64,000 nt of DNA from an uncultured Acidimicrobiaceae bacterium (GCA_963804265.1 CAWDPZ010000005.1:6799-70798); one strand, 5' to 3'. Shown: positions 5,847 to 24,030, counted from the stretch's first letter. Notes: generated by a model not told the origin, from the sequence alone. Numbers and translations are program-made.

Positions 5847-8383
5847 CTAGGCCTCCCGCAGCACCTCGGCGGGGTGACGACGGGATGCGATGGCAGCCGG
5901 CACGATCGCGAGCAGGTTGGCGAACGCGACCACACCTACCGCCAATAGGGCGACGATCGCGGCCGGGACCACCGCCACCGGTACGGCGCCGAGGTTCAAG
6001 ATGAACGGGTTCCAGATGCCGGCGCCGACGGCGAGCCCGGTCGGCACGCCGAGGCCGATCCCGATCAGGGCGACCGTCGTCGCCTGCCAGCACACCGCCG
6101 TGCCGACCTGGATGCGCACGAAGCCCAACACCTTGAGGAGAGCAATCTCACGTCTGCGTCGTACGACGCTCACGAGGAGGAGGTGCGCGAGGGTGGCCGC
6201 TCCGAACAGGGCGAGCATGACGCCGAGGAAGGCCGGGAAGTTGACGGCCTGGCCGAAGTTCACGAGGTTGACCGGCACGGTGAGCACACTCAGGTTCTGG
6301 GCGAGTTGCCGCTCGAGCGTCGCCTTGGCGGCTCTCCCCGCCGCGTCCGGGGCAGTCGCGATCGCCATGCCCCAGTTCGCATAGCCCGCGAGACCGGAGC
6401 TTCGCGAAGAGGCTCTTGATGCACGGCCCCGAGGCCGGACCCGTCGGACATGCAGCGACCGCTGCCGCGTGGAGTGGGAGCACGGCTCCGACGCCGATAC
6501 CGCCGGGACTGAGGTTGGGCGGAAACGCCATGGAACCGACGACGGTGAACTCACTCGTGCGCGAATTGCCCGACGGCCCGATCACCGACAGCGAGACCCT
6601 GGAGCCGACGTGGGCGTGCGCGGAAGACAGTGTCTGGGTTCCGAGGGCGATCTCCCCGTCGCCGCGCGGGTAGCGCCCGTCGATGAGGGAGAAGACCAGG
6701 GGCCCCTTGCCCACCTCCACGAACGTCGCCTGCACAGGGGAACCGTTGACGTTGACGTACTTGCCGTTGATCCCGTAGGTGATCCTCGTCACGGCGGGGT
6801 CCGAGGCGAACTTTGTCACCACTCCTGTGACCTGCCGGTACGTCATGCCGCCCACGTCCACCTGCCAGCCGAGCCCGTAGAGCCTCGGCGTGGCCAGCAG
6901 GTTGGACAGGCTCGCACCGAATACGGTCGTCGCCACGAGGGCGGCGACGGCGACGACCGCGCCCGCGAGCGCGGTCGCAACCGGCACGCTCGAACGCCCC
7001 CGTCCCCGCTCGAGGGCATGGCGTGTCCCGATCAGGATGCTCGGCGGGGCGCCGGTCTCGGCGAGTGCCCGGACGACCCGTCGAAGGGCCGTGGACGGCG
7101 GGTCGGTCATCGCTGCGCAGCGTTGCGCGCACCCGGGAGTCTCGCCACGAAGGGTAGGCGGCGAGCAGCAGGACGACGGCGACAATCGCCACCGTGCCGA
7201 GGCCGAAGACGAGCGTGTCGAAGAGGAAGCCCTCGGTCGGCTCGGCCGCGCGGGCCTCGCCCACCGGCGTCAGCGGCGAGACCGCGACGGCGAAGGCGAG
7301 CGCGCCGAGCATGCCTGTCACCCCGATCACCGCCGCGGAACACACCGAGACCGAAGAGCTGGGCCGGACGAAAGCCGAGCGCCGAGAGCGTCGGATACAT
7401 CTCGCGCTCGACGATGCTTTGGCGCGACAGCGCCTGGCCAACCAAGGCGATCCCCGCCAGCCCCGCCAGAAAGGGCGAAGAGCCACCACCCGATGGCCTG
7501 GGGACGGATCGACCCTTCAATGGCGGTGATCTGGGCGTCCTCGCTCTGGGGGTAGACGAAGTTGCCACCGGAAAGAGGGATGTGGTTGACGGCGTAGGTG
7601 AAGCGCGGAAGGTCGGCTGCGCCGTGGACGAGGCGCACCATCGCGAGGGAACCGGTGACGACGGTGCGCCCGAGCGTGCGGTCGAAAGCTGGGCTCGTGA
7701 AAATCGAGAAGCTGGGGCTGCTCGAGGGAAAGTCGAGCATGCTCGTCTCGAAGCCCACGATGCGAAAGCTGACGAGGGGGCCGTGCGGTGTCGGTGTTCC
7801 GTTGCTGGCGTAGACGGCCTGGCGCTGGGAAGGCGCGTAGAGGGGCACGGTGACGACTGACCCGAGATGGAGGCCGAACTGCTGCTGCATCGAGAAGCCC
7901 GCGAGCGCCTCGAACCGACCGACCGGCAGCCGTCCACCGATCAGCTTGACTATCTCGGCCCGTCGAGGCGCGGGAAGGCTCGAAGACACCGAGGTCGTTC
8001 CCGGGTAGAAATTGCCCGTTCACGACCACATTGCCGTTTGCATAGAAGGTGCTGGTCGACATCGATCGCACGTCGCCCATGTGGGCGATGCTCCCCGGGA
8101 TCGAGGGGGTCGAGGAGAAGAGGCCGGCGTCGAAGCCGTAGCGCGAGACGAACTGAGGAAACGCCGACGAGGTCCGCCGTGCCGCGGACACACCGGCGAG
8201 CACGGTTCCGCCCACGAGCGCAATCAGAACCGCCAAGCGCGACCCATGCCCCGAGCCGACGGCGAACTTCGGTGCGAAACACGATCCGGATGCACCGCAT
8301 CTGGCCACCCCCGCACCCAAGTATGTCTGCTGCATCGGTTGTCGGGCAGTGTGGTAACGCCGAGAACTCGGTCGTGCTAGCAC
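5847..8383 (-). pseudogene. Large double-FtsX-domain ABC transporter permease (about 830-845 aa), at least 5 frame disruptions
   Basis: The protein can be followed through ORF-track pieces 7517..8383, 7327..7989, 7107..7937, 6551..7489, 6148..7185 and 5847..6554. Junctions lie near 7980, 7470, 7340, 7125 and 6410. The C-terminal FtsX motif is EIALLKVLGF. An alternative start is ATG at 8335. No partner ATPase gene is adjacent. Confidence 0.75.
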
Positions 8384-8508
8384 GACCGGCTCAGCGCTTC
8401 GGCCCCGCCGGCCCCGGGCGCGTCAGCGCTGAGAAGCTCAGCCCGTCCTGGCTTCGGCTCGCGGGAGTAGGGCTCAGGCGCGTCAGCTCCGGTGCCGATA
8501 TGTAGGAC

Positions 8509-8943
8509 ATGCGGCTCCCTTCTGGAATCTCGGCACTCGGTCTCGTCGCCTTGCTCGTCGCGGCCGGTATGAGCGCTCGCCCGGTCGCTGGTGCCGCGCC
8601 CAGCACAGCTTCGACCGCCGCCACTCTCCAAGCCACGAGCTCCTACGTCGGCGTCGAATGCGTTGGGACCGGGGCCGGAGGCTTCCGGGCCTTTCCCCAC
8701 CCGCCCGGCACTGGGGCGGTCAGGCACCGCCATCGCCATGCCGGCTTGGGCAACCTCGCCGTCGCGGTACCGCCGATGGTCTTCATCCGCCGGCACGGCG
8801 AGCAGCTGTTCGTCAGCACCAACACAGGAGAGCCGCCTGGAGCAGGGGACATCTTCTACTACGTCGGGCACGGCGGCTACGGCGTCAGCAAGTCCCTGCG
8901 CGACCGGATATTGCGGGACTGCTCGGCCACGGGGCATCGCTGA
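8509..8943 (+). CDS. Hypothetical small secreted protein
   Basis: 144-aa ORF with a signal-peptide-like N-terminus (MRLPSGISALGLVALLVAAGMSARPVAGAAP). I recognise no family, and the RBS is weak. Confidence 0.35.
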   Translation: MRLPSGISALGLVALLVAAGMSARPVAGAAPSTASTAATLQATSSYVGVECVGTGAGGFRAFPHPPGTGAVRHRHRHAGLGNLAVAVPPMVFIRRHGEQLFVSTNTGEPPGAGDIFYYVGHGGYGVSKSLRDRILRDCSATGHR

Positions 8944-9015
8944 GCCCGGACGAGCCGGTGGGCATGCCCACCGGAGTGCAGGATCACTCCTGAGCCTCGG
9001 CGGTCCAGAGGCCCT

Positions 9016-10210
9016 CTAAGGCTCTGTCGCCGACCGTGCCCGGCCTGTGGCGGGAAGACCGAGCTCGGCACGGATCGCCTCGGTGTGCTGCCCGAGCGAG
9101 GGCACCGGCTTCATCGGGGTCTCCCGTCCGTCGACGATCACGGGAGCCTGCAGGGCGTGGAAGGTCCCTGCAGGCGAGTCGACCTCGAGCCATCTGTGCC
9201 TCGCCGCGAGCTGTGGGTGGTCGAACAGCTCCACAGGAGAGCGCAGTCGGGCGTTCGCGATGCCAACGGAGTCGAGGAGCGCCACGACCTCCGAGGCGGC
9301 GAGGTCGGCCAGGGATCCCTCCACGATCGACCGGAGCTCCGCGTCGTGCTCGACCCGGTCGGTGTTGGTCGAGAAACGGGCGTCGGTGGCAAGACCGGGG
9401 CTCCGCAGGACCTTCTCGCAGAACACCGCCCACTCCCGTTCGTTCTGAATCCCGATGAACACCTCGGTCCCGTCGGAGGTGGCGTAGGCGCCGTAGGGGG
9501 AGATCGAGGCGTGTCGGGAGCCTGTCCGGCGCACGGGGCGTTCGCCATAGCCGTAGTAGTAGGCGGGCTGGCTCATCCACTCGCCGAGCGCATCGAGCAG
9601 CGAGATCTCGAGGTTCGTGCCGAGCCCGGTCCGCTCGCGCTCGTAGAGAGCGGCGAGTATGCCGCTGTAGGCGTACATCCCGGCCGAGATGTCCGCCACC
9701 GAGATGCCGACCTTGACCGCCTCCTCGGGTGTTCCCGTCACGGCCAGCACGCCCGCTTCGCACTGCACGAGGAGGTCGTAGGCCTTCTTGTCGCGATAGG
9801 GACCGTCCGAGCCGTAACCCGAGACCGAGCAGGTGATCAGCCGTTCGTGCCGCTGCCGCAGTGCCGCGTGCCCCGAGCCCGAGGCGGTCGGCCGCACCGG
9901 GGGCGAGGTTCTGGATGAAGACGTCGGCCCGGTCGATCAGCGCGTCGAGCACCGCGCGGTCGTCGGGACCCTTGAGGTCGAGCTCGATGCTCTCCTTGCC
10001 CCGGTTCAACCAGACGAAGTAGCTCGACTGGCCGAGGACGGAATGGTCGTAGTCGCGGGCGAAGTCGCCCGTGCCCGGCCGCTCGACCTTGATCACCCGC
10101 GCGCCGAGATCGGCGAGCTGGCGGGTGGCAAAGGGTGCCGCGACGGCCTGCTCGAGCGCGACGACGGTGATCCCGCCGAGGGTGCCCGCCGGTGGCCGAG
10201 CCGCGCTCAT
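9016..10210 (-). pseudogene. Family III (CaiB/BaiF) CoA-transferase, one frame disruption
   Basis: The 8984..10210 frame (GITVVALEQAVAAPFATRQLADLGARVIKVERPGTGD...NLAPGAADRLGLG) joins the 9016..9897 frame (HAALRQRHERLITCSVSGYGSDGPY...). The junction is at the CCCC run 9871-9874. Removing one base restores RLGLGHAALRQRH. Confidence 0.85.
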
Positions 10211-10216
10211 CCGGCC

Positions 10217-11373
10217 TCAGCTGAGCGGGTTGCGCTGGATCAGCTGGCGGGCGATGACGTTGCGCTGGATCTCGTTCGTCCCTTCGCCGACGATCATGAG
10301 CGGGGCGTCCCGGAAGTACCGCTCGACGTCGAATTCGGTCGAGTACCCGTAGCCGCCGTGGATCCGCATGGCGTCGAGGGCGATCTCCATCGCCGTCTCC
10401 GAGGCGAAGAGCTTCGCCATGCCCGCCTCGAGGTCGGCGCGGGCGCCGGAATCGTACCGCCGCGCCGCGTACAGGACGAGCTGGCGGGCAGCCGTCAGCT
10501 TCGTCGCCATGTCGGCGAGGTAGTTGCCGATCGACTGGTGCTTCCAGATCGGCTTACCGAAGGCCTCTCGTTGTTGTGCGTAGCGAAGCGAGTCCTCGAG
10601 GGCGGCGCGGCCGACGCCGAGCGCACGCGATGCGACCTGTATGCGGCCGATCTCGAGGCCGCGCATCATCTGGGCGAAGCCGTGTCCCTCCTGCCCGCCG
10701 AGGAGGCAGGACGCGTCGACGCGCAGCTCGTCGAAAGCTATCTCGCAGCTCTCGACGCCCTTGTAGCCGAGCTTCGGAAGGTCGCCGCGAGACGCTGAAG
10801 CCCGGGCCCTTCTCCACGAGCAGGATGCTGATGCCCCGGTGCGCCGGCTCCGCCGTCGGGTCGGTCTTGCACAAAAGGGCGATGAGCTCGGAGCGACGGG
10901 CATTGCTGATCCAGATCTTCGACCCGTTTATGACGTAACGGTCGTGGTCGCGGATCGCCGTCGTCCTGATCGCCTGCAGGTCCGAGCCGCCGCCGGCTTC
11001 GGTGAGGGCCATGGTCGCCCGGAGCGCGCCGGTGGACATCGCCGGCAGGTAGCGGTCCTTTTGCGCCTCCGTGCCGTGGTCGAGCGAGCAGCTTGGCGAC
11101 GACGGTGTGGCCGCCCATCGCTCCGGCGAGGCTCATCCAGCCCCGGGACAGCTCCTCGGTCACGAGGGCGTAGCACGAGGTGCTCACGCGCACGTTCCCC
11201 CAGGGCTCCGGGATGGCCAGCCCGAAGATCCCGAGCTGTTTCATCTGCTCGATGAGCGCTTCGGGATAGGTGTTGGCGTGCTCGAGCTCCTGCACGACCG
11301 GCAGCACCTCGCGGGCGACGAAGAGCCGCACGACCTCGACGATCGCCTGCTCCTCGTCGCTCAGCTCGTCCAT
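10217..11373 (-). pseudogene. Acyl-CoA dehydrogenase, two frame disruptions
   Basis: Three pieces are involved: 10738..11373 (N-terminus), 10554..11039 (ALTEAGGGSDLQAIRTTA...INGSKIWISNA) and 10217..10903 (...YSTEFDVERYFRDAPLMIVGEGTNEIQRNVIARQL). Junctions lie near 11090 and 10800. Confidence 0.85.
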
Positions 11374-12597
11374 CGCCCTCCAGTCGCAGCCGACGACCTA
11401 GCGGGGACGTGCTCGCGCAGCACCTCGACCGCATGTTCCCACGTCCAGCTCGATCTCTCGAGGTCGAGGCCACGGGTGCAGTCGGCGAGCTTGGCAGCGA
11501 GATCGTCGCGTCCGGCGGCCTTCTGCGGCGAGCCCGGAGGGAACCTCTGGCTCGCCGAGAGCACCGTGCCGTCGGTGATCTCCACCTCGGCGGTGAGCCT
11601 GCCGGAGAGCAGGTCGGTCCCGCCCGGCTCGAGGTCGACCTCGACCATCCCCATGATCTCCCGCGCCTCGTGCCTCGCGTACCGCGGCGTCGGTGAAGCA
11701 GTCGAGTCCCTGGTGGGCGTCGAGGAGCGCCGTGGCGGCCGCGTACTCGATGCTGAACTTGCCTTCCAGCCCCGTCGTAGGGGCGTGGTGGATCAGCGGC
11801 TCCACGGTGGAGGCGGCGGTGTGCAGCACGATCCGCACGACGTCACGCCAGTCCTCCACCTCGCCGGCGAGCCCGGCGAGGGCGCTGATGGGCCGCTGCA
11901 GCGCATAGCAGCAGGGGTAGATCTTCGTCGCCAGGCCTCCAGGAACAGCTGGTCCGCAAAGGTCCAGAGCCGCCGGGTCACCGCCGACGAGGCGCATCCA
12001 CACCTCGAGGGCGGAAGGATCTCCGCGGGCTCCGTCGCCGGCGAGCCTCGCCGCGCGCATCCCCGCCTCCACCGCGAAGCCGACCTGGAGCGCCTTGCCG
12101 TCGGTGCCGAACGACCGCTGCACGCCACCGGCGGCCGGCACCGAGAGGGCGATCGCCGCCGCGGTCTGCTCGGGATCGAGGCCCCAGGCGACGGCCGCAC
12201 CCGCGGCCGCCGCAGGCGCCCCGGCGGTGCAGGTCGCGTGCCACCCGGCCGAGTAGTGCGCCCAGCCGAGGGCGTTGCCGAGCCGTGCCATCACGCCTGC
12301 GGCCGCGAGGTAAGCCCTCGCGCCGCCCCCGGCGGCGAGGGCCGTCGGCACGCAGACGGCGCTGACGTGCGTCGTCGAGGGCACGTGGAGGTCGTCGTAG
12401 TCGAGGACGTGGGCGGCGACGGCCCAGCGCGGTCCGTCGTCGAACCAACGCGTCAGCTCGACGAGCGGGTCTGATCTCGCGGCGAGCATCACCGCCAGCG
12501 AGTCGCGAAGCGACCGGTCGGCGAGCTCGCAGTCGGCCGCACCGGGCCGGAGGTCGTGTGCCCACTGGGCAAGCGCCTCGGCCGGCGTGGTGCTCAA
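11361..12597 (-). pseudogene. MmgE/PrpD-family protein, one frame disruption
   Basis: The 11398..12597 frame is good through ...FSIEYAAATALLDAHQGLDCFTDAAVRE. It then switches near 11670 to the 11361..11654 frame (MGMVEVDLEPGG...PPGSPQKAAGRDDLAAKLADC). Confidence 0.8.
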
Positions 12598-12681
12598 TTG
12601 CCCCTCACCCGGACAGCGACACGCCGGGACCGCCCTGTGCGACCGGCCGCGGCGGGATCGGGCGGTACGACCGGCCGGGCT

Positions 12682-13557
12682 TCAGCTCGAGCGCTCGACG
12701 ACACGGTTGCGCAGGGTGCCGAAGGGCGGGCAGGTGATCTCGACGACGTCGCCGTCGACGAGGAACTCCGGGGGTTCTCGCCAGACTCCCACCCCCGCCG
12801 CCGTCCCGGTCAAGATGACGTCGCCCGGCAGAAGCGCCATCCCGAGCGAGAGGTACGAGATCAGCTTCGGGATCGGGTGGTACATCTCGCCCACCAGGAA
12901 ATCCTGCTTGACGGTTCCGTTCACCGTGAGCACCATGTGCAGTCCCGCCAGATCGGGCACGGACGGGGGAGTGAGTATCGCGGGCCCCAGTGGGCAGAAC
13001 CCGTCGAGGCTCTTGCCCTTGTGCCATTGCGAGGAGGGCCCGTTGGCCGACTGCAGGTCCCTCGCCGAGACGTCGTTGGCGAGGGTGTAGCCGAACACGT
13101 GGCTCATGGCGTCCGCCTCGGCGATGTTCACGCCACCGGTGCCGATCACAACGGCCAGTTCGGCCTCCCAGTCCGCCTTCTCCGTCGCTTTGCGGTCGAG
13201 GACTATGTCGCCCCCCGGCGCGTTGAGCGTCGTCCAGGGTTTCGTGAACACGACCGGGGTCTCCGGCATCGACGAGCTCGCCCGCTTTCCCTCGTCGTGG
13301 TGGCTGACGTAGTTGAGCCCGATGCAGAACATGTTGCGGGGAGGCCGGGTGACGGGGGAGACGAGCGCGACGTCCGCAGGCCAGTGCCCGGCCGCGCCGG
13401 TCGACTCCTCCTCCACGTGCGACCAGGCGCCCTCTCCGGCGGCTATCAGCTCCTCCACCGCCGCGAAACCCCAGTGCCTGAGCGACGCGACCGAGCCGTC
13501 GCCTGTCACCACGCCGCCTTGCTGGCCGTCCGCGGTCTGCACGGTCACGAGGCGCAT
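12682..13557 (-). CDS. Fumarylacetoacetate hydrolase (FAH) family protein
   Basis: Intact 291-aa ORF (FCIGLNYVSHHDEG...DWEAELAVVIG...ANDVSARDLQ...GDVILTGTAAGVG). Confidence 0.9.
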   Translation of the reverse strand: MRLVTVQTADGQQGGVVTGDGSVASLRHWGFAAVEELIAAGEGAWSHVEEESTGAAGHWPADVALVSPVTRPPRNMFCIGLNYVSHHDEGKRASSSMPETPVVFTKPWTTLNAPGGDIVLDRKATEKADWEAELAVVIGTGGVNIAEADAMSHVFGYTLANDVSARDLQSANGPSSQWHKGKSLDGFCPLGPAILTPPSVPDLAGLHMVLTVNGTVKQDFLVGEMYHPIPKLISYLSLGMALLPGDVILTGTAAGVGVWREPPEFLVDGDVVEITCPPFGTLRNRVVERSS

Positions 13558-13594
13558 CGGTTGTCTCCTTGTGTCGGGGGTCTCCGGCCGGCTC

Positions 13595-13972
13595 TCAGCC
13601 GTAGGGCTTGTCTTCGAAGTAGTGGGGCCCGTCGTATATCTCGAACAGTATCGACGGTTCCACCGCCTCGGTGGGGCCGTGCTCGTTGCCGAGCGGGTTC
13701 CAGTAGAAATCGCCCGGTGTCAGCTCGAGCCCGCTCGAGACGTAGTTGTAGCGACCGCTCACGCAGTACATGAACTGGTTGGAGGCGTGCCGGTGGCGCC
13801 GCGGGATGCCCGCCCCCGCCTCGAAGCTGAGCAAGGCGATTGACAGGCCGCCCTCGCGTGCCCAGAGCTCCTTCATGCGAAGCCCGGGGATCTGCGGCAT
13901 CTCCGGCCAGGTCTCGGGCCCGTCGGCTCGGAGGTGGACCTCGCCCCCGGGGCTGTCGTGTTCTTCGGTCAT
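13595..13972 (-). CDS. Cupin-domain protein
   Basis: 125 aa from ATG at 13972 (GIPRRHRHASNQFMYCVSGRYNYVSSGLELTPGDFYWNPLGNEHGP). The ATGA overlaps the upstream amidohydrolase stop. In the ORF track it appears fused into 13595..15400. Confidence 0.75.
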   Translation of the reverse strand: MTEEHDSPGGEVHLRADGPETWPEMPQIPGLRMKELWAREGGLSIALLSFEAGAGIPRRHRHASNQFMYCVSGRYNYVSSGLELTPGDFYWNPLGNEHGPTEAVEPSILFEIYDGPHYFEDKPYG

Positions 13973-15467
13973 GGCAAGGTCCCCTCCTGGGTCTGGGTTT
14001 CGGGCTGAGGATGCGTGCGGTCGAGATAGCGGCCCCGGGGCGCTCCCACCACCTTGGCGTCGCGGAGCACGGGCTCGCCGCGAAGCAGCGTGTGGAGCAC
14101 GCGGGCCTCGAGCGTCATGTTCTCGAAGGGCGTGTACTCCTGGGCGGATCTCGAGTCGGCGGCGTGCACGACCCAGGGGGCGTCGTTCTGCACGAGGGCG
14201 ATGTCGGCGTCGAAACCCTCGGCGATGGCGCCTTTGCGATCGAGGCCGAAACGACGTGCCGGCTCCCAGCTCAGCATGCGGGCGACGGCGTCGTAGCCGA
14301 GCCCCCGGCGGCGGCCCTCGCTGATGAGCCCGGCGAGGAGGTACTCGGTGCCGCCGAAGCCCGACTTGGCGAGGAACACGTCGTCGCGGGGGTCGCCGAA
14401 CTTGACCTCGTCCCGGCAGCAGGCGTGGTCGCTCGCCACCCAGCTGACGTCGCCCGCGCAGCACGTGCTCCCAGAGGGCCTCCACGTCGCGGCGCGGCCG
14501 CAGGGGCGGGTTCACCTTCCCGCCGACGCCCACGGCGGAGTCGCAGTCGGCGAGCAGGTGTCCGATGGTCACCTCGCGGCGGAAGTCGACGGCGGGGAAT
14601 GTCGCGGCCATCTTCATCGCCGCGTCGATCGCCTTCTCGGAGGAGAGATGGAGCAGGTTGATGTTCGCCAGGCCCGTCTCGTAGGCGAGGTAGGAGGCGA
14701 TCGTGACGGCGAGGCCTTCGCTGTGCTGGGGCCGCGAGGCGCTATAGGCGGGAAGCCCCTTCAGCTCGCCGGCCTCCTCGACGAGCTTGGTGTAGGCCGT
14801 CATTATCTCCGGGGTCTCGCAGTGCAGCGAGAGGGAGATCCGGTCCGCGAGGGCGGGCCGGTCGCGCCGGGCGGCTTCGATCGCTCGCATGATGAACTCG
14901 AAGTGCGCCAGGTTGTAGTGCTCCTCCGGCGGCGTCATGAGGAACGAGGACTGGTCCGCCGAGCGTCCGTGCAGCCCGTGGCTCCCGTAGAACATGAAGA
15001 TCTTGAACGAGGTGACGCCGAAGTCGTCGATGATGGAGGGGATCTCGTCGATGTGCTGCTGCATCATCGGCGCGAGGTGGAAGGCGTAGTCGACGAGCGG
15101 GCGGCCCTGCGTCCTCTCCAGCACCTCGGGGAAGAATGTCCGGTACGGCCCAGAGCGGTTCAGGTAGTACTGGCCGGTGCGCATGTAGTTGATGGATGTC
15201 GTGACCCCGCCCTGCGCGCAGGCGCGGCTTTCGACGACGGCGTCGACCTCGATCGGGTTGTAGATGCCCCAGTGCTGATGCGCGTCCACGACCCCGGGGA
15301 CGGCGACGAGCCCGGAGGCGTCGAGGGAGTCGTCAGCGTCGGAGCCGGCCAGCTCGCCGACGGCGGCGATGCGCCCGCCGACGATACCGATGTCGGCCAC
15401 CTTCGGCTCGGGGTCGTCGTGGCGCGGCGACGGCTGCGCCCCGGACGATCAGGTCGTAACGTGCCAT
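13969..15467 (-). pseudogene. Hydantoinase/dihydropyrimidinase-type cyclic amidohydrolase, 1-2 frame disruptions
   Basis: The 13595..15400 frame (GVVDAHQHWGIY...SLHCETPEIM...GGKVNPPLRPRRDVEALWEHVL) switches near 14450 to the 13969..14439 frame (ASDHACC...GFDADIALV...). A likely N-terminus, MARYDLIVRG from ATG at 15467, lies in yet another frame. The alternative is a GTG start at 15400. Confidence 0.8.
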
Positions 15468-15605
15468 CAGCCGCGCGCGACCCTGCGTGGGCGAGAAACG
15501 TGCGTGTTCCGCTTCGCGGACATCTGTTCCAACTTAGCGGCGTGCCGCCGCCCGCGAACGGATGCGCTCGGCGCCGCGGACCTGACCGGCGCAACGGGCG
15601 TGTTG

Positions 15606-16584
15606 TCAGCCAGGGCGGCTCCAGTCCCCTGATTCGGCCAGGAGCCGCCGTGCGGCACGGGCGACAGCCTCGTCGACCATCTTCCCCTGGCCGTCGCGTG
15701 TCACCGCGCCACCCCGGGCTCTGGCCGAGTCGTAGCGGGCGAGGAGCTTCGAGCCTCGGCGAGCTCTCCTTCGCTCGGGCGGAAGATGTCCCGCACGATA
15801 GGGATCTGGCTGGGATGGATCACCGTCCTGCCGCTGAACCCGAGCCGTCGCAAGCGCATAGTCGAGGCCCGCAGGCGCTCGAGGTCGTCGATGGCCGTCT
15901 CGGCCGAACCGACCGGTGGCTCGATGCGGGCGGCCCGCGACACGGCGACGACGAGGCTGCGCCAGGGGAGGAGCTCGATCTCGTCGTCGCTCACCTGGAT
16001 CCCGAGATCGGCCATGAGGTCCCTCTCGCCGATCTGGATCCGCGTCACCCGGGGTGCCCGTGCGAGAGCGCGCATCTCCTCGAGGCCGGTGGCCGACTCG
16101 ATCAAGGGGACGACGGCCACCGAGCCGGCGGGCAGCTGGCGCGCCGCCTCGAGGCGGGAGAGATGGCGGTCGAGCTCCTCGAGATCCCCGAGCAGCTCCG
16201 CCTTCGGGTAGACGACTCCGGTGGCCGCGGGGATGCACGGCAGCCCCGAGGTCCAAGAGCAGCTCCTCCTCGCCGACCGCCGAGCGTGGGTTGACCCGGA
16301 CCCAGATCGGCGCCGGTCCTCGGACCTGGTGTTCTCAGATAGGCGGCGACGAACTCGCGGGCCTCGGGCTTGGCCGAGGAGGCGACGCCGTCCTCCAGGT
16401 CGAAGATGAGCGCGTCGGCCCCCCGCTTCTCTGCTCCTTCGAGCATCGCTTGATTGTCACCTGGGACATAGAGGAGCGTGCGCGCGATTGTCAGGGGTGA
16501 CCTCCGACGGACTTCGGGTACGGATTTATGGAACAGTATTCCAGTTCCTGGAGCATCCTGCGCTTGGCCGGGGGCGGAGGCCAT
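15606..16584 (-). pseudogene. HpcH/HpaI aldolase / citrate-lyase beta (CitE)-like acyl-CoA lyase, three frame disruptions
   Basis: RTLLYVPGDNQAMLEGAEKRGADALIFDLEDGV (16102..16584 frame) leads to IWVRVNPRSAVGEEELLLDLGAAV, then to VVYPKAELLGDLEELD...VPLIESATGLEEMRAL...GFSGRTVIHPSQI (15701..16120 frame), then to KLLARYDSARARGGAVTRDGQGKMVDEAV. Junctions lie near 16335, 16232 and 15745. The start codon is uncertain. Confidence 0.7.
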
Positions 16585-16635
16585 GGTGAAGATGGCCCAT
16601 GGTGCAGATCACCCATGGTGGAGCTGCCCATGGTG
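16581..16635. repeat. Four direct copies of CCATGGTG with a 16/16/15-bp period
   Basis: The copies are at 16581-16588, 16597-16604, 16613-16620 and 16628-16635, read directly. They lie at the junction of the divergent CitE-like and flavoprotein genes. Each copy carries ATG on both strands. Confidence 0.8.
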
Positions 16636-18098
16636 GAGATGAGGAGGAGGCCGGCCTGCCTGACCTGACGACGCCCGAGGTGGACGGGAGACCGGTTATC
16701 ACCGCCGACCTGGTCGCGAAAGCGCGCGCGGGCGCCGCGCCGTCCGACGGTGTCGACCTCGTGGTCGCCGGGGCCGGGGGCGGGCTCGCCGGAGCGATCC
16801 GGGCCGCCGAGCTCGGGCTGCGCGGTGCTCGTGATCGACTCCAGCCCGCACTTCGCGAACGGGAACAACACCTCGATGTCGACGGCGATGCTCCCCGGCG
16901 CCGGCACCCGCTGGCAGGCGGAGGCGGGGATCGAGGACTCGCCCGAGCTGTTCGTCGAGGACATCCTGCGCAAGACCGGATACGAGGCCGACCTTCCCCT
17001 CGCCGTGGGCCTGGCACAGCTCAGCGCCCGGCTCGTCACGTGGCTCGCCGACGACGTCGGCCTGCCGATCGAGCTGACGGTCGACTTCGCCTATCCGGGT
17101 CACAGCCGACTGCGCTGCCACACCATCCCGCGGAGGAAAGGCGCCCTCTTGTTGGCCGGGCTGCTCGAGCGCGCCATGTCCTCGGTCGGCATCGACCTGC
17201 TCGTTCCGGCCCGACTCGTCGACGTGGCGGAGTCGGATCACACGATCACCGGGGCCGTCGTCGAGTACCCGGACGGCGGCTCGGGAGGAGATACCGTGCC
17301 GTGCGGTGCTGCTTGCCACGAACGGCTTCGGGGCGGCCCCCGAGCTCGTCCGCCGGCACATCCCCGAGATCGCGGCCGCCCGGTACCACGGCAGCTCGGA
17401 GTCGCGCGGAGACGCCCTGCGTATCGGGGCCGAGCACGGGGCCGCGACCGCCTTCCTCGACGCCTACCAGGGTCACGGAGCCGTCGCGACACCGCACGCG
17501 ACCCTGGTGGGGTGGGCGACGATCATGCACGGCGCGCTGCTTGTCAACCAGGACGGGCGCCGTTTCGGCGACGAGACCTCCGGCTACTCCGAGTTCGCTC
17601 GCGAGGTGGTCGCCCAGCCGGGCTCTACCGCCGTGCTCGTGCTCGACAAGCGCATCCACGACGCCTGCCTCGTCTTCGACGACTACTGCCAGACGGTCGA
17701 TTCGGGTGCGTTGCGATGGGCGGACGATGCGGCCGAGCTGGCGCGGAGCTTCGGCATCGATCCGGCTCCGCTCGGCGGCCACGCTCGAGGAGGCCGGCAA
17801 GTGCGCCCGCGAGGGCGGGACCGACCGGTTCGGCCGCTCCTCATGGGAGGCCGCGCTGCGGGCGCCGCTCGCCGGCGTGCGTGTGACCGGGGCGCTCTTC
17901 CACACCCAAGGGGGACTGCGCGTCGACGAGCACGCAAGGGTGCTCCGCGCCGATGGGTCGCCGATCGAGGGCCTTTACGCCTCGGGCGGGGCCGCCATGG
18001 GCATCTCGGGGCACGGGGCCGCCGGCTATCTGGCGGGCAACGGGCTGCTGTCGGCGCTGGGACTGGCGTTTCTCGCCGCGGAACACGCCGCCTCCTGA
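16599..18098 (+). pseudogene. FAD-dependent oxidoreductase of the fumarate reductase/succinate dehydrogenase flavoprotein type (KstD/TcuA-like), at least 3 frame disruptions
   Basis: DLVVAGAGGGLAGAIRAAELG (16599 frame) leads to VLVIDSSPHFANGNNTSMSTAMLPGAG... (16750 frame), then to LLATNGFGAAPELVRRHIPE...AYQGHG... (17306 frame), then back to ...ALFHTQGGLRVDEHARVLRADGSPIEGLYASGG (16599 frame). Confidence 0.75.
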
Positions 18099-18180
18099 CT
18101 TTCTCGCCTGAGGCCCGAGGACCTCGACGACGCCCTGCGGGCCGGCGGCGGCACGAGGGCGACCTCTCGACTGGCAAAGG

Positions 18181-18220
18181 CGCGGTAGGTATTATTGATA
18201 CCGCGTTCCGAAGAACGGAA
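18181..18220. other. Two adjacent small inverted repeats (CGCGGTA-N11-TACCGCG and TTCCG-N5-CGGAA)
   Basis: Read directly. The first loop is the AT-rich GGTATTATTGA. The site is about 85 nt downstream of the flavoprotein stop and about 215 nt upstream of the monooxygenase gene. Confidence 0.3.
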
Positions 18221-18433
18221 CCGCTTGCGTGCCTCCTCGAGCCGGCAGGCCGTGCGCCGGAGAAGCGGGGCACGCACCACGGCCTCGGGGGACAGGAGCA
18301 GGCAGTGCGACTTGGCACAGTCAGGATCGGTGGCGGCGGCGGCCGCGTCACCGTCGTCGCCGCGGAAGCGAGGCGAGCCGGAGACGCGGCTGCGCCTCGT
18401 GGACGAGCAGGCCTGATCCTGTGGCACCTCCTC

Positions 18434-19548
18434 CTGAAGGCGGTCGTCCTCGGGGGAGGCATCGGCGGCCTAACCGCGGCCTTGAGCCTGCTCGCGGTGG
18501 GGGTCGAGGTGCAGGTCTTCGAGCAGGCGCCGTCGTTCTCCGAGATAGGTGCCGGGATCCAGGCTTCGCCGAACTCGGCGTGGGTCCTCGTCCATCTCGG
18601 CCTCGCCGACTCGCTCGACGCGGTGGGCGTGCGGCCGGACCGCCTCGAGAGCCGCCACTGGGAGGACGGACGGCTCCTCGGCACGCACGAGGTGAACGGG
18701 GACCCGCCCCCCTACGGGGCGCCCCACTACCTCATGCACCGGGCGGATCTTCTTCGCACCCTTGTCGACGCGCTGCCCGAAGGCGTGATCTCCCTTGGAA
18801 GACGTGCCGTCTCCCTGGAACACGACGGCGACCGGCGAAGGTCGCCTTCGCCGACGGCGGCGAGGCATCGGCCGATGTGGTCATCGCCGCTGACGGCATC
18901 CATTCGGTCGTGAGGTCGTTGCTCTTCGGGCCGGACCTGCCCAGCTTCTCGGGCACGGTCGCCTACCGAGGCCTCGTCCCGGCGCACAAGGTGGCCAGTC
19001 TCGCCATCCCGAACACTTCGACGAAATGGTGGGGCCCGACTCCAGAGCACCATCTCGTCCACTACCACATCGCCGGCGGCCGGCTCGTGAACGTGGTCGG
19101 GGTCGTGCCCGAGCAGTGGGAGACCGAGTCCTGGACGACCAAGGGCGACGTCTCCGACTTCGCGCGGGCCTTCGCCGAGTTCCACAGCCCCGTCCCCGAG
19201 CTCGTCGGGGCAGTCGAGGAGGTCTACAAGTTCGCCATCCACGACAGGCCACCGCTCCGGAGCTGGACCGTCGGCAGGGTGAGCCTGCTCGGCGACGCGG
19301 CCCATCCGATGGTGCCCTTCATGGCCCAGGGCGCCGCCATGGCGATCGAGGACGCCGCCATCCTCGCCCGCTGTTTGCACGGGGCGGGCAGGGCCGAGGT
19401 CACCGGAGCCCTTGTCCGTTACGACCGCACGCGGCGCGATCGTACGGACCGGATGCAGCTCGGCTCCCGCATGGACACCTCCGACACCTGGAATGCGCGT
19501 GACTGGGTCTACGGCTATGACGCCTACACTGCGCCCTTGCTAGATTGA
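18434..19548 (+). pseudogene. FAD-dependent aromatic-ring monooxygenase (salicylate/3-hydroxybenzoate hydroxylase-like), one frame disruption
   Basis: KAVVLGGGIGGLTAALSL...GIQASPNS (tail of the 17306..18913 frame) switches near 18835 to the 18229..19548 frame (ADVVIAADGIHSVVR...LLGDAAHPMVPFMAQGAAMAIEDA). The start codon is unclear (no ATG or GTG before KAVVLGGG). Confidence 0.8.
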
Positions 19549-19591
19549 AACATGATTTCGCTAGCCGGGACGAAGCCGCCGAGCTCTCGTC

Positions 19592-20870
19592 ATGGGCAAT
19601 CGGTCTGACGGAAGGGGGGCGATGAGCGAGAACCGCGACGAGGGACGAGTCACGGGCGAGGGGCACGAGCGCTCCGGCCCACTTTCGGGGCTGCGGGTGC
19701 TCGACTGCTCGACGGTCGTGGCCGGTCCGCTCGCCTGCCAGCTCCTCGGCGACTTCGGAGCCGAGGTGATAAAGATCGAGCACCCCCGCTACGGCGACAC
19801 GCTCCGCGGCCACGGCCCCTCCAAGGACGGGGTGCCCTTGTGGTGGAAGGTGATCAGCCGCAACAAGCGGACGGTCGGCCTCGATCTCGGCGAGCCCGAG
19901 GGGGCCGCGGTGATGCTGCGGCTCGCCGAGACCGCCGACGCCATCGTCGAGTCGTTCCGCCCCGGCACGCTCGAGCGCTGGGGACTGGGATGGGACGTGC
20001 TGCACGCCCGCAACCCCCGGCTGGTGCTCACCCGTGTGACAGGTTTCGGCCAGGACGGCCCCTACTCACCGGGCGCCCCGCCTTCGGGACCCTCATCGAG
20101 GCGATGTCCGGCTTCGCCGCCATGACAGGCGAGCCGGGCGGCGCGCCTGTTGCCCCCCTTCGGTCTCGCCGACGGCATCGCCGCCATCAGTGCCGCCTTC
20201 GCCACCACGCTCGCCCTCTACCATCGCGACGCCCAAGGAGGCGACGGCCAGGTCATCGACCTCGCCATCCTCGACCCGCTCGTCACGGTCCTCGGCCCGC
20301 AGCCGACGGTCTACGACCAGCTGGGCGTCGTGCCCGAGCGGACCGGGAACCGTTCGTCGAGCAACGCGCCGCGGAACACCTACGAGACCTCCGACGGGCG
20401 CTGGGTGGCCGTCTCGACAAGCGCCCTCGAGGTCGCCCGGCAGCCGTCATGCGGCTCGTCGGACGCGAGGACGTGATCAACGAGCCCTGGTTCGTGCACG
20501 GGCAGCGGACGGGCCGAGCACGTGGAGCTGCTCGACGGGGCGGTGGCCGAGTGGATCGCCAAGCGGACCCGGGACGAGGTCATGGACGAGCTCGCCCGCG
20601 CCCAGGCTGCCGTTGCTCCTGTCTACGACGTCGCCGACCTCCTCGCCGACGCCCAAGTCGTGCACCGCGGGTCGATCACCGAGGTCGACGACGCGGATCT
20701 CGGCGCTTTGCGCATGCAGAACGTGCTCTTCCGCATGTCCGCCACACCCGGGAAGATCTCCTTCGGCGGGCGGAGCCCGGGGCGCCGACACCGACGAAGT
20801 TCTGGTCAGCGAGCTCGGCCTGTCCCCGGCCGAGCTCGCTGACCTGCGAGAGCGGGGCATCGTTGCCTGA
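19592..20870 (+). pseudogene. Family III (CaiB/BaiF) CoA-transferase, at least 5 frame disruptions
   Basis: The protein can be followed through 19592..20125 (LRVLDCSTVVAGPLACQLLGDFGAEVIKIEHP), 19840 frame (AFGTLIEAMSGFAAMTGEPGG), 20150..20476, 19840 frame (VMRLVGREDVINEPWF), 20522..20842 and the 20190..20870 tail (DTDEVLVSELGLSPAELADLRERGIVA). An alternative start is ATG at 19622. Confidence 0.75.
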
Positions 20871-22271
20871 GGCGGCCACCCTGCTCGAGGCGCTCGCCGC
20901 CATGGTGTCGGATGCGACCCCGGACCGCCTGCCAAGAGAAGTCCTCGACGACGCCCGCGCCCACCTGCTCGACACGCTCGGCATCTGCCTGGCGGCGACC
21001 GAGCTCGACACCAGCAGGGCCGTCACGGAGTACGCCCTCGGGCAGGGCGGCCGGCCGGAGGCCCATGCCATCGGCGGCGATTCCCGATCCCCGCCGCGCT
21101 GGCGGCGCTCGTGAACGGGACGCTCGCCCATTCCCTCGACTACGACGACACCCACCTGCCATCGGTCGTGCACCCGAGCGCGACGATCGTGCCGGCGTGC
21201 CTGGCCGCCGCCGAGCAGTGCGGAGCGGGGGGTCCGGCGCTGCTGGCCGCCATAACTGCCGGGACCGAGGTCTGCGTGCGACTCGGGATGGCCGGCTACG
21301 ACAGGGCGGGGCGCAACTCGGTGTACTTCGACCGGGGCCAGCATGCCACCTCCATGTGCGGGGCGATCGGCGCCGCCGGGGCGGCCGGGGCGCTCATGGG
21401 CCTCGACCGGGCGGGCATCGCCAATGCCATGGCGATCGCCGCCAGCATGGCCTCGGGCATCATCGAGGCGAACCGGTCGGGCGGGAGCGTGAAACGCCTG
21501 CACTGCGGGTGGGCGGCGCACTCGGCCATCACGGCGGCGGCCCTTACCGGGTTGGGCTTCACGGGGCCGGGGACTGCGCTGGAAGGACGGTTCGGTTTCT
21601 TCGAGGCGTATCTGTCGGGCAGGTTCGATCCCGAGGAGATCACGGGCGGACTCGGCGAGCGCTGGGCGGTGTCCTCGGTGCACTTCAAGCCGTACCCGGC
21701 GAACCACTTCACCCACGCCGGCATCGACGCCGCCCTCGCGATGCGGGCGGGGGGCGTGCGCCTCGAAGAGGTGGCGAGCATCCGTCTCGGCGTCGCCGGC
21801 CCCACGGTCCGTACGATCGGCGAGCCGATCGCGCTGAAGCGAAACCCCGAGACGGGATACCAGGCGCAGTTCAGCGGCCCCGTATACCGTCGTGGCGGCG
21901 CTTCTCGGCGGGGGCGGCCTCGGGCTGGGCCTGGACGACTTCACCGACGAGCTGCCCGCTCGCCGGAGCGGAGACGTCACATGGCCAAGGTGGAGGTCTT
22001 CGAGGACGAGAGCTGCAACGGCATCTTCCCCGACGCCTTCCCGGCCGTGCTCGAGGTCGAGACCGCGGGGGGCCGGGTTGTGACCGAGCGCGTCGAGGTC
22101 AACCGGGGCGGCCCGGAGCGCCGCTCTCGAGCACGGATCTCGAGCTCAAGTTCTCCGACAACGCCCGTCGCGTCCGGAGCGGCGACGCCGTCTCGCGCAT
22201 GCTGGAGGCGGTCGGTGCCCTCGGCGGGCAGGGCACGGTGGCCGAGGTGCTGGCTTCGGTCGCGCGCCTGA
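20863..22271 (+). pseudogene. MmgE/PrpD-family protein (second copy), at least 3 frame disruptions
   Basis: A TTG at 20863 overlaps the CoA-transferase stop by 8 nt. The sequence runs PEAATLLEALAAMVSDATPDRLPREVLDDARAHLLDTLG, then 21111..22271 (NGTLAHSLDYDDTHLPSVVHPSA...FKPYPANHFTHAGIDAAL). Further shifts occur near 21880, 21960 and 22120. The exact C-terminus is uncertain. Confidence 0.7.
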
Positions 22272-22296
22272 GGCACCGCCTTTCCGGCGGCGGGGC

Positions 22297-23118
22297 TCAG
22301 GCCCGGTGGCCCATCCGCGCCGAGACGCCCCGGGTGGCGGCCATGAGCGTTCCCGCCGCCTCCTTGGCCTCCCCCGGAAGCGCTCGGCGGGGCCTGAGAT
22401 CGAGATCACGCCGAGGAGCTGATCGTTCATCCCGAATATCGGCGCCGCCACCGAGCCGGCACTGTCGTCGCGTTCGCCGAAGGAGACGGCGTGGCCCTTC
22501 GCGGATGGACTTCAGCTCGGCACGCAGCTTGACGGGGTCGGTGATCGAGTGCGCCGTCATCGCCACGAGCTCGTGGGAGGCGAGGTACTCCTCCTGCTCC
22601 GGCGTGGGGAGGAAGGCGAGCAGGGCCTTGGACGACGCACCCGTATGGAGGGGGAACGGGCGTCCGATCTGCACGACCATCTTCACGTCACGCTCGGGCG
22701 TGATCTGGTCGATGTAGACGCGGTCCCACCCGACGCGGATCGAGAGCGTCGCCGTCTCGTTCGTCGTCCTGACGAGCTCGGTCATCGCCTCGCGGGCAAT
22801 GACGCGGAAGTCCAGCCGGTCCATGTTGCGCAGCCCGAGCATCAAGATCTTGGGCCCGAGCCGGTAGCGATGGGTCATGTCGTCGATCTCGACGAATTCC
22901 TTCGCCCGGAAGGTGGACAGGATCCTGTGCACGACGGCCTTGGACAGGCCGAGGCTCTGGGCGATCTCGGTGACGCCGAGCGTCTGGGACTCCGCCTCCA
23001 CGAACAGCGAGAGGACATCGAGCGCCCGCTCGATGCCCTGCACGCTCTGGATGCGGGGCTCGGCCGCATCGGCCTGCGTCACTGCCACCTCCGAGAGTCG
23101 AGGAACGCCACGGGCCAA
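22297..23118 (-). pseudogene. IclR-family transcriptional regulator, two frame disruptions
   Basis: IQSVQGIERALDVLSLF...LGVTEIAQSLGLSKAVVHRILSTF...TLSIRVGWDRVYIDQI...PLHTGASSKALLAF. A segment APIFGMNDQLLGVISISGPAERF lies in the 22146..22451 frame, between shifts near 22500 and 22380. Confidence 0.8.
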
Positions 23119-23200
23119 CGTAGCCGACCCGAGGTTCTTTAGGCCTGATTTGCGGGCCGCTGAAGCTGTCTGCCGGGCGACGAAAACCTCCCCGGCCTGT

Positions 23201-24030
23201 TCAGCGCGGCCTGTTCAGCGCCCCGATGGCGACCGGTCTCACGGGCGAGCCGGTGGCGCCGACGAGCTTCAACGGCAGGCAGACGAAAGTGAAGCTCCAC
23301 AGCCGGGCCCTCCACGAGCGCGTCCAGGTCGAGCGCCTCGATGATGTGGATCCCCGACTCGACGAGAAGCACACGGTGGCCGGGAGCAGCCTGTGCCCGG
23401 CTCCGGGCGCGATGTGCTCGAAGGCGATGGTGTCGGACCCGACGGCGAAAGGCGAGGCTGCCGCGAGCCAGCGAGCGCCCGCCTCGCCCGGGCCCGGGAC
23501 ACCGGACTCGAGCCCTACGAAGCGCTCCTTGTCGTCGAAGTGCCGACCCCAGCCGGTGTGGATCAGCACGACCGAGCCGGGCGCCAGCTCGACGCCTCGC
23601 GCTCGGCGGCGAGCTCCAGGTGCCTCGGGCGATATCTCGACGGCGGGCAGCGCAGGTCTGAGACCGAGGGCGCCGGCGACGTCCAGCAGCACGCCCGGCC
23701 GCACGATCGGCTCGATCGTCTCGACCCCGAGCTCGCTGAAGCGCCCCCCGGTCTGAGCAGCCATGGCGTCGACGCCGCCGTGGAGCAGGCCCCGGTGCGA
23801 CACGTGGCAAAGCGCGTCGATGTGCGTCCCGACATGGGTGCCGACAACGAGGAGGTCGTTCGCCGCCGAGGACCCGTCGTCTCTCGGACGTCGCCATGGC
23901 GGCGCTCGAGGGTCATGCGGAAGGCGGGGTGGTTCGGCGACTGCGGCATGCCGACGAACAGCGGCCTGCCGAGGTCGAAGACCATGCCGCCGATCACGTC
24001 AGATCCGACCGCCCCGTCGCCATCCCCCAT
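23201..24030 (-). pseudogene. Cyclase-family protein (kynurenine formamidase-like fold), at least 4 frame disruptions
   Basis: ATG at 24030 has a GGAGGA RBS. The sequence runs MGDGDGAVGSDVIGGMVFDLGRPLFVGMPQSPNHP, then LLVVGTHVGTHIDALCHVSHRGLL (my own translation), then VVLIHTGWGRHF, then FTFVCLPLKLVGATGSPVRPVAIG. The pieces lie in three frames. Confidence 0.7.

Follow-up and report, generated by a model that had tools for sequence, protein, structure and literature searches.

Seven co-directional minus-strand genes lie at positions 9016–16584 of a 64,000-nucleotide (nt) stretch of DNA from an uncultured Acidimicrobiaceae bacterium (hereafter the window; G+C content ~69%), and were originally predicted to form one cluster resembling itaconate-type C5-dicarboxylate catabolism. 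We favour, with reasonable confidence, a different composition, in which two modules are juxtaposed in one species-level lineage, their frame breaks are artefactual and their mechanisms can be proposed by analogy. Module A comprises PrpD1 (MmgE/PrpD family), an acyl-CoA dehydrogenase (ACAD) and the family III CoA-transferase CoAT1, and is a separate unit that now stands downstream of the FAH-family gene in the window lineage. Module B, which takes in the amidohydrolase and the CitE-like lyase and, with them, the cupin and FAH genes of the span, corresponds to a conserved operon, here rearranged, whose order elsewhere is IclR–CoA-transferase–cyclase–PrpD–amidohydrolase(–lyase). The family memberships, the conserved residues, two independent synteny patterns and the presence of intact gene copies in close relatives were all observed directly.

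Pfam families confirmed the predicted gene content of the span, namely a CitE-like acyl-CoA lyase, an amidohydrolase, a cupin, an FAH-family protein, an MmgE/PrpD protein, an ACAD and a family III CoA-transferase, all on the minus strand. The ends of the span coincide with the stop codon of the CoA-transferase (9016) and with one ATG of the lyase (16584), whose start is uncertain and may be this ATG or one further downstream. Only the FAH and cupin genes are intact open reading frames (ORFs); the other five are interrupted by insertions or deletions (indels) of 1–2 nt. The list of seven genes stands, and it overlooked a second CoA-transferase/PrpD pair, two FAD enzymes, an IclR regulator and a cyclase at 16.7–24 kb.

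Synteny separates the two modules. The seven-gene association was found only in two contigs of the same species, and the PrpD1–ACAD–CoAT1 triad occurs without the lyase, amidohydrolase, cupin and FAH genes in 80 other actinomycete genomes; together with the orthology results given below, this largely undermines the original prediction on the two grounds that it had itself named. What survives of the itaconate-like reading is a resemblance at the level of enzyme families; neither the single seven-gene unit nor orthology to itaconate or methylsuccinate enzymes does. The suggested ring- or amide-opening front end is still plausible for module B and does not apply to the triad.

Module A is a stand-alone operon in Actinomycetes

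We aligned 20 members of the PrpD1 family (alignment A1) and then scanned one genome per species of the GTDB. The scan yielded 80 loci, all in Actinomycetes and 75 of them untruncated, with a best PrpD1-family match of 67% identity; carriers include Streptosporangiaceae metagenome-assembled genomes (MAGs), many long-read soil MAGs, Acrocarpospora phusangensis, Pedococcus and Jatrophihabitans. PrpD, ACAD and CoA-transferase follow one another in the order and strand of the window in 37 of the 75 untruncated loci, PrpD is directly followed by the CoA-transferase in 31, by the ACAD only in 3, and stands alone in 4. The ACAD found directly after PrpD1 in 42 actinomycete loci (40 of the 75 untruncated ones) is 75–83% identical to that of the window (median 80%), and the CoA-transferase located downstream of PrpD1 in 68 loci is 64–72% identical (median 69%). 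CitE-like lyase, amidohydrolase, cupin, FAH and FAD-enzyme genes were found within 10 kb in none of the 80 loci, with the exception of a weak, 29% identical CitE-like match in Pedococcus. Only one neighbour of the triad recurs, a divergently oriented GntR+UTRA (HutC-type) regulator seen in 42 of the 80 loci. Elsewhere, then, module A forms an operon on its own, and a GntR/HutC regulator is usually divergent from it.

The PrpD1 fragments of the window match the N-terminal and C-terminal MmgE/PrpD Pfam domains with 71 and 47 bits, respectively (cut-off 32.1), and P0121, an intact PrpD1 homologue, carries both MmgE_PrpD_N and MmgE_PrpD_C; database names for the family gave no function. The ACAD aligns end to end with FadE3 (PDB 4IV6; 630 bits, residues 4–383 of 384, ~80% identity), which places it in the FadE3 orthologue group and, as judged by sequence, identifies it as the FadE3 orthologue. 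No assigned substrate was found for FadE3, a protein of solved structure. The closest solved relatives of CoAT1 are the dicarboxylate-type family III transferases YfdE, SUGCT and Frc, and CoAT1 falls below all NCBIfam equivalog cut-offs (succinyl-CoA:mesaconate CoA-transferase, 198 bits vs 700).

Module B is centred on a conserved amidohydrolase

Orthologues of the amidohydrolase are well conserved, with 66–73% identity in cultured Actinomycetes, and those placed in CoA-transferase–cyclase–PrpD–amidohydrolase operons of four genera are 64–70% identical to it. The gene ends the operon (IclR–)CoA-transferase–cyclase–PrpD–amidohydrolase in Nonomuraea coxensis, Pseudonocardia thermophila and Micromonospora aurantiaca. 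The window counterparts of the other genes of this operon lie at 19.6–24 kb, outside the flagged span: the second CoA-transferase (CoAT2) and the second MmgE/PrpD protein (PrpD2) are 60–65% identical to those of Nonomuraea, Pseudonocardia and Micromonospora, and the cyclase and the IclR regulator are 59–61% and 46–63% identical, respectively, to the operon genes in cultured genomes. An HpcH/CitE gene directly follows the amidohydrolase gene in Micromonospora and is divergent from it in Streptomyces (38% identity to the window lyase in both). On the strength of this synteny, the amidohydrolase and the lyase belong with CoAT2 and PrpD2 and not with the triad.

One MAG locus of 20 kb (L005) contains the same operon together with a cupin gene, an FAH gene and a divergent lyase gene. 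Nearly all of it has orthologues (50–74% identity, different order) at 12.7–36.3 kb of the window, including a Dpp/Opp-type ABC transporter (25.1–29.0 kb) with a binding protein (32.9–34.7 kb), DLH, two RidA genes, a second FAH gene, a class II aldolase, CMD, IclR and the cyclase. This spread of orthologues defines a catabolic island of ~25 kb that extends far beyond the flagged span, and the ABC transporter and the further genes up to 36 kb probably also belong to module B.

The remaining genes of the island are more variable. An orthologue of the FAD_binding_2 protein (61% identity) lies near the amidohydrolase gene in Streptomyces, and the cupin is 72% identical to that of L005 and was absent from the four amidohydrolase loci of cultured genomes; its similarity to PDB entries is weak (2,4'-dihydroxyacetophenone dioxygenase, E 8e-6). 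The FAH protein is 63% identical to FAH298 of L005, has 2,4-didehydro-3-deoxy-L-rhamnonate hydrolase as its best NCBIfam match (173 vs 500), and counts FAH family proteins, OPET decarboxylase and HpcE among its PDB relatives. Both FAD enzymes, like the cupin and the FAH protein, would be lineage-variable accessories. Allantoinase and hydantoinases can be aligned with the amidohydrolase along its entire length; its PDB relatives are allantoinase and D-hydantoinase, and it scores 216 against the NCBIfam allantoinase cut-off of 358. For the lyase, the closest relatives are RipC (3QLL, 98.6 bits, the best solved match), CitE and CLYBL, and its NCBIfam scores (RipC_Ccl, NF038242, 121.5 bits vs a cut-off of 375; citE equivalog, 134 vs 443) come from a frame-corrected reconstruction, which may lower them slightly.

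Frame breaks are most likely consensus errors

When proteins were aligned to the DNA with frameshifts allowed and the frames were also read by hand, three frame breaks came to light in the lyase gene, two in the amidohydrolase gene, one in PrpD1, two in the ACAD gene and one in CoAT1. Beyond these, the frame is broken once at 25.3 kb and once at 28.6 kb, and genes are split at 34.8–35.3 and 44–46 kb; the latter are an MR_MLE gene (~44480) and an SDR gene (~45080), both on the plus strand and each split over two frames, so that small indels are present far from the flagged region too. Many ORFs of 1.2–2.0 kb are intact between 30 and 64 kb.

The intact homologue P0121, 95% identical to PrpD1, led to two metagenome contigs, L006 and L007, from two samples of the Joint Genome Institute (JGI), which are collinear with window positions 6882–22618 at ~96% nucleotide identity and carry the same genes in the same order, with the genes intact. 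Relative to these contigs the window has 49 private indels, of which 44 are 1–2 nt long and 35 fall in 14.75 kb of coding sequence, and the five indels of at least 3 nt are all intergenic. The 1-nt events comprise 25 insertions vs 12 deletions and lie outside homopolymers (run length 1) in 68% of cases vs a background of 57%. L006 and L007 agree with one another at all 7 shared indel sites. The substitutions that separate the window from its relatives (264 synonymous and 150 non-synonymous) give a ratio of non-synonymous to synonymous rates (dN/dS) of 0.19; 4,573 frame-corrected codons contain no premature stop; the substitution pattern is alike in the five broken and the two intact genes; and the G+C content of third codon positions (GC3) is 0.8–0.97 in every gene fragment. 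Bacterial pseudogenes typically show deletion bias. The combination of small indels, substitutions under selection, no nonsense codons and no deletion bias indicates that the frame breaks are most likely consensus errors and not decay, and with this interpretation the genes would be read as functional.

L007 carries an error of its own, a 1-nt deletion in a run of five G at its position 1026 (window equivalent 14302), which splits its amidohydrolase into ORFs of 351 and 102 amino acids (aa); L006 and the window agree at this site. This homopolymer error contrasts with the non-homopolymer indels of the window, whose run lengths leave homopolymer-type long-read error unsupported as the specific cause. 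Programmed frameshifting was likewise rejected, as there are dozens of events with no common motif and none in the 96%-identical relatives. With ~2–3 small indels per kb in the region, automated annotation of this record would wrongly report a field of pseudogenes.

Relationship to itaconate and methylsuccinate enzymes

The itaconate cluster of P. aeruginosa (PA0878–PA0883) and Cupriavidus necator encodes Ich, Mcd, Msi, Ict and Ccl (Gonner et al. 2025, PMC12290011). The original prediction named an additional ACAD and an MmgE/PrpD gene in the P. aeruginosa cluster, correctly so: the ACAD is (RS)-methylsuccinyl-C4-CoA dehydrogenase (Mcd) and the MmgE/PrpD protein is (S)-(R)-methylsuccinate isomerase (Msi), both of which work with the itaconate CoA-transferase, while Ich and Ccl are treated as the pathway-specific pair of itaconate degradation (PMC12290011). 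Membership in Msi was defined by a hidden Markov model (HMM) score above 550, and the Msi gene was reported to lie always beside the Mcd gene (PMC12290011).

PrpD1 shares the active-site set of these enzymes. The catalytic and binding residues of Msi are His88, Glu/Asp91, His102, Tyr148, His152, Lys202 and Lys266 in P. aeruginosa numbering (PMC12290011), and PrpD1 residues H63/D66/H77/Y115/H120/K168/K225 align to H85/D88/H99/Y145/H150/K198/K266 of iminodisuccinate epimerase. All seven are present in the window sequence and invariant in the 20 members of alignment A1. The second-base Tyr occurs in 4/4 ACAD-adjacent PrpD paralogues, a small set, and is Phe or Leu in both module B PrpDs (Phe in PrpD2).

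The sequences of the characterised Msi genes (PA0881, Q0K3E6) and of PA0879 were taken from the synthesised-gene DNA in the supplement of PMC12290011, which has dropped characters, and six PrpD paralogues were scored against them by frameshift-tolerant alignment with a shuffled null. Of these scores only the ranking is reliable, given the noise from optical character recognition: PrpD1 was the lowest of the six (97 against the C. necator and 73 against the P. aeruginosa gene; null 49–63), and the PrpDs of the metagenome loci L001 and L003 were the most Msi-like of the set (286–354). The ACAD of the window lineage scored 304–372 against PA0879 (35% identity), and an ACAD from Pontibrevibacter scored 975–1047 (62% identity), as a true orthologue would. 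The neighbour of PrpD1 is thus an ACAD of FadE3 type and not of PA0879 type, and the constant Msi–Mcd adjacency does not recur here. The second-best solved relative of the ACAD is PdMCD (PDB 6ES9), the (2S)-methylsuccinyl-CoA dehydrogenase of the ethylmalonyl-CoA pathway, with which it has in common the catalytic Glu-535 as well as Arg-421, a residue that binds the carboxylate (PMC5798300).

When compared with characterised enzymes, no flagged protein reached an NCBIfam equivalog cut-off. The MaoC gene that had been placed 30 kb away was not found with Pfam among the ORFs scanned at 36–64 kb, which are a part of all window ORFs. Neither the flagged region nor the window ORFs scanned gave a MaoC or MC_hydratase match that could represent an itaconyl-CoA hydratase (Ich/RipB, MaoC type), and a tblastn search of the window with a MaoC protein of the mesaconyl-CoA-hydratase type gave a best E-value of 0.38. 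The FAH protein and the cupin, considered as substitute hydratases, found no support, and both are missing from nearly all loci of either module.

Proposed mechanisms

By analogy with Msi, Ict and Mcd, PrpD1 would epimerise a free 2-substituted succinate through a His/Tyr two-base mechanism, and CoAT1 would activate one enantiomer to the CoA thioester, with succinyl-CoA as the probable donor. The FadE3-type ACAD would then oxidise the thioester to a 2-enoyl (fumaryl-type) CoA ester, and hydration and C–C cleavage would be left to enzymes encoded elsewhere. In mycobacteria, fadE3 (Rv0215c) is a neighbour of Rv0216, which codes for a double-hotdog hydratase, and a protein of this type could supply the hydration step. 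The substrate of module A is probably not methylsuccinate itself, or at least its enzymes are probably not Msi and Mcd orthologues.

The mechanism of module B is inferred more weakly than that of module A. The dihydroorotase/allantoinase-like amidohydrolase and the PF04199 'cyclase' may act on a cyclic amide, ureide or imide by ring opening and deacylation, giving a ring-opened product with the C4-dicarboxylate (succinate-type) backbone common to all known MmgE/PrpD substrates. PrpD2, which is without the second-base Tyr, would transform this product, CoAT2 would activate it and the CitE-like lyase would cleave it.

Alternative readings

The seven genes could form one integrated pathway, in which a cyclic amide or imide is first opened by the amidohydrolase, its product is then processed by cupin and FAH protein, and an epimerase, the CoA-transferase, the ACAD and a citramalyl-CoA-type lyase continue along an itaconate/methylsuccinate-type C5-dicarboxylate route. 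Such a pathway would suit a co-directional string of seven genes that overlap or are separated by short gaps and keep their order in L006 and L007, the presence of four out of five kinds of enzyme known from the Msi/Mcd/Ict/Ich/Ccl cluster (PMC12290011), and RipC as the closest solved relative of the lyase. We nevertheless consider it unlikely: the 80 other triad-carrying actinomycete genomes lack the association, the lyase and amidohydrolase pair with a different CoA-transferase and PrpD in five other lineages, the window ORFs scanned contain no hydratase gene, and the set holds neither a protein at an equivalog cut-off nor orthologues of Msi and Mcd in PrpD1 and the ACAD. We hold it equally improbable that module A is true methylsuccinate utilisation by a Gram-positive Msi/Mcd/Ict set diverged past sequence recognition. 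The same three enzyme families in one operon with the full two-base residue set, an ACAD related to 6ES9 that retains Arg-421, and a PrpD1 whose best match outside its family, among the PrpDs compared, is the Pontibrevibacter PrpD beside a true Mcd orthologue all speak for this; PrpD1 is, however, barely above the shuffled null against both Msi genes, the ACAD is 35% identical to PA0879 and has Arg-252 and Ala-285 of PdMCD replaced, and the ACAD gene is missing in 31 of the 75 loci, vs an Msi gene that always stands beside Mcd.

If the frameshifts were real mutations, the cluster would be decaying and non-functional, in a lineage losing both modules. Five of the seven genes contain at least nine frame breaks and the neighbouring genes more than 20, and break density looks higher at 7–24 kb than at 25–36 kb. 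Decay is nonetheless very unlikely in view of the low dN/dS, the uninterrupted frame-corrected codons and the high GC3 throughout; the indels are nearly all of 1–2 nt, favour insertions and fall outside homopolymers, the opposite of the deletion bias of pseudogenes. Two relatives at 96% identity are wholly intact, and genes are split at 25, 28.6, 35 and 44–46 kb as well.

The composition that we prefer, two juxtaposed modules of functional genes, has its own difficulties. Indel density is uneven along the window, looking higher in the first of the two intervals just named, and the artefact call draws on sequences of relatives and not on reads. In the window lineage the seven genes run in one direction with little space between them, and the two modules may therefore be co-transcribed and could have become functionally linked here. 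Alignment to the characterised genes showed no orthology of PrpD1 to Msi or of the ACAD to Mcd, the enzymes from which the mechanism of module A is borrowed, and the published Msi HMM survey lists 14 Actinomycetota, all Rubrobacterales (PMC12290011). As 31 of the 75 loci have PrpD1 and the CoA-transferase without an ACAD, the dehydrogenation step is not universal. Three PdMCD positions differ in the ACAD, the essential Arg-252 being replaced by His, Arg-376 by Lys and the methyl-pocket Ala-285 by Met (PMC5798300); with two of three arginines replaced and Ala changed to Met, a carboxylated acyl-CoA substrate is only partly supported. The literature searched yielded no description of either module.

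Gene coordinates and neighbouring genes

The gap between the FAH and PrpD1 genes, at which the two modules adjoin, is 84 nt. The coordinates of all genes of the two modules are collected below.

Genes of modules A and B in the window, with their positions, strands and frame breaks
Gene	Position	Strand	Module and features
CoAT1 (family III CoA-transferase), 397 aa	9016..10210	-	module A; CoA_transf_3; break 9867
ACAD, 384 aa	10217..11373	-	module A; Acyl-CoA_dh_N/1/2; breaks 11086, 10786; start overlaps PrpD1 stop
PrpD1 (MmgE/PrpD family), ~408 aa, TTG start	11361..12597	-	module A; MmgE_PrpD_N+C; break 11677
FAH-family protein, 291 aa	12682..13557	-	intact; FAA_hydrolase
Cupin, 125 aa	13598..13975	-	intact; Cupin_7/ChrR-like; start overlaps amidohydrolase stop by 4 nt
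Allantoinase/dihydroorotase/hydantoinase-like amidohydrolase, ~498 aa	13972..15467	-	module B signature enzyme; Amidohydro_1/3; breaks 15429, 14456
CitE-like acyl-CoA lyase	15609..16584	-	module B; HpcH_HpaI / C-C_Bond_Lyase; breaks near 16328, 16227, 15748
FAD_binding_2 oxidoreductase, ~471 aa	16681-18098	+	divergent; module B; several frame breaks; intact in L006
FAD_binding_3 oxidoreductase, ~371 aa	18434-19548	+	divergent; module B; several frame breaks; intact in L006
CoAT2 (second family III CoA-transferase)	~19600-20870	+	module B core; 5 frame breaks; intact in L006
PrpD2 (second MmgE/PrpD protein)	~20860-22271	+	module B core; 4 frame breaks; intact in L006
IclR regulator	22297-23214	-	module B; 2 frame breaks
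PF04199 'cyclase'-family metal hydrolase	23225-23991	-	module B; 3 frame breaks

An FtsX-like permease gene downstream of the CoA-transferase (5850–8300, minus strand) is unrelated to the catabolic genes; it has five small indels in the window and is intact in L007, where it encodes 472 aa. An intact third family III CoA-transferase (51043–52227, minus strand) is 55% identical to the CoA-transferase beside ACAD and PrpD in L001 and L003, and is flanked by an MR_MLE enolase-superfamily gene (52345–53610, minus strand) and by an ORF of 622 aa (49104–50972, minus strand). In the latter, E1-beta domains precede an E1-alpha domain, and it is either a real beta–alpha fusion or two genes joined by an indel. 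A 668-aa ORF (60986–62992, plus strand) that combines phosphotriesterase-family (PTE) and DAP_DH_C domains may be an error-fused pair of genes, given the indel load of the record.

Significance

Two conserved actinomycete operons are defined here, each pairing a PrpD-family protein with a family III CoA-transferase, and that of module A holds the orthologue of mycobacterial FadE3. Both are directly testable, as each has cultured carriers: Acrocarpospora phusangensis and Pedococcus in the case of module A, and for module B Micromonospora aurantiaca, Pseudonocardia thermophila and Nonomuraea coxensis. Nothing in them is mechanistically surprising; they mark two well-defined gaps in the annotation of MmgE/PrpD proteins and of FadE3. 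Only five reactions have been assigned to the MmgE/PrpD family, which is represented in roughly one in five prokaryotic species (PMC12290011). As a tentative proposal, which may well prove wrong, the triad would be a dedicated pathway for a 2-substituted succinate other than methylsuccinate, and IclR–CoA-transferase–cyclase–PrpD–amidohydrolase(–CitE) would offer a new way to convert a succinate-backbone cyclic amide, ureide or imide to a CoA ester, which a CitE-type lyase would then cleave. If so, the FadE3 orthologue group would gain its first function and both modules would enlarge the known chemistry of MmgE/PrpD proteins.

Comparison with known systems

Like the P. aeruginosa/C. necator cluster (PMC12290011), the window combines an MmgE/PrpD protein, an ACAD and a family III CoA-transferase in one operon and has a CitE-family lyase in the same co-directional string, and PrpD1 keeps the His/Tyr two-base set of Msi along with the carboxylate-binding His, Asp and Lys. 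It differs from that cluster in that the proteins are non-orthologous, no itaconyl-CoA or mesaconyl-CoA hydratase was found, the triad and the lyase are unlinked in other genomes, the host phylum is Actinomycetota, and many triad loci (the 31 noted above) have no ACAD. The closest solved relatives of PrpD1 are iminodisuccinate epimerase (2HP0/2HP3) and the B. subtilis 'IRG1' homologue (7BRA), at 97–103 bits; the seven active-site residues align with the epimerase, Tyr145 included, yet the similarity to both is at family level only, and the 'IRG1' homologue has no demonstrated activity (PMC12290011). The triad ACAD resembles FadE3 (4IV6) from end to end and shares the catalytic Glu and Arg-421 with PdMCD (6ES9), from which it differs in being without the 170-residue N-terminal extension and in the replacement of Arg-252, Arg-376 and Ala-285.

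Among the enzymes of module B, the lyase has the same fold family (HpcH_HpaI / C-C_Bond_Lyase) as RipC/Ccl, CitE and CLYBL, but unlike RipC/Ccl it scores far below the equivalog cut-off and travels with the amidohydrolase, CoAT2 and PrpD2, not with a hydratase. The amidohydrolase resembles the cyclic amidohydrolases allantoinase, D-hydantoinase/dihydropyrimidinase and dihydroorotase; it is below every equivalog cut-off, and its partners are a CoA-transferase, a PF04199 cyclase and a PrpD, none of them from purine or pyrimidine catabolism. A locus of the betaproteobacterium Variovorax paradoxus (L098; CP063167.1, 708–725 kb) has genes for a CoA ester lyase, an amidohydrolase and a cupin, for an ACAD and two CoA-transferases, and for a MaoC dehydratase and a GntR regulator, and none for a PrpD-family protein; by enzyme types, this mix resembles the flagged cluster.

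The proteobacterial five-gene Msi cluster was also sought in a plasmid collection, and the four loci obtained did not qualify: Cupriavidus EM10 and Rhizobium each had a lone PrpD, Paraburkholderia had a Yersinia-type RipCBA cluster, and a Variovorax locus was without PrpD. The FAH-anchored metagenome loci L001 and L003 have the order SDR–FAH–RidA–CoA-transferase–ACAD–PrpD, and L001 has in addition a separate amidohydrolase–SDR–MaoC(MC_hydratase)–CoA-transferase–HpcH string; both may be closer to a true methylsuccinate/mesaconate route than the window triad is. On a plasmid of Pontibrevibacter nitratireducens (L096; NZ_CP049813.1, 48.6–58.0 kb), GntR, MmgE/PrpD and ACAD genes, the last encoding the 62% match to PA0879, are accompanied by a tripartite ATP-independent periplasmic (TRAP) C4-dicarboxylate transporter, a CoA-transferase and a gene for a protein like 3-hydroxy-3-methylglutaryl-CoA (HMG-CoA) lyase, with an enoyl-CoA hydratase gene upstream. 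The locus looks like a methylsuccinate-type cluster with non-homologous hydratase and lyase families, and in its gene set the logic proposed for module A can be seen as a complete pathway.

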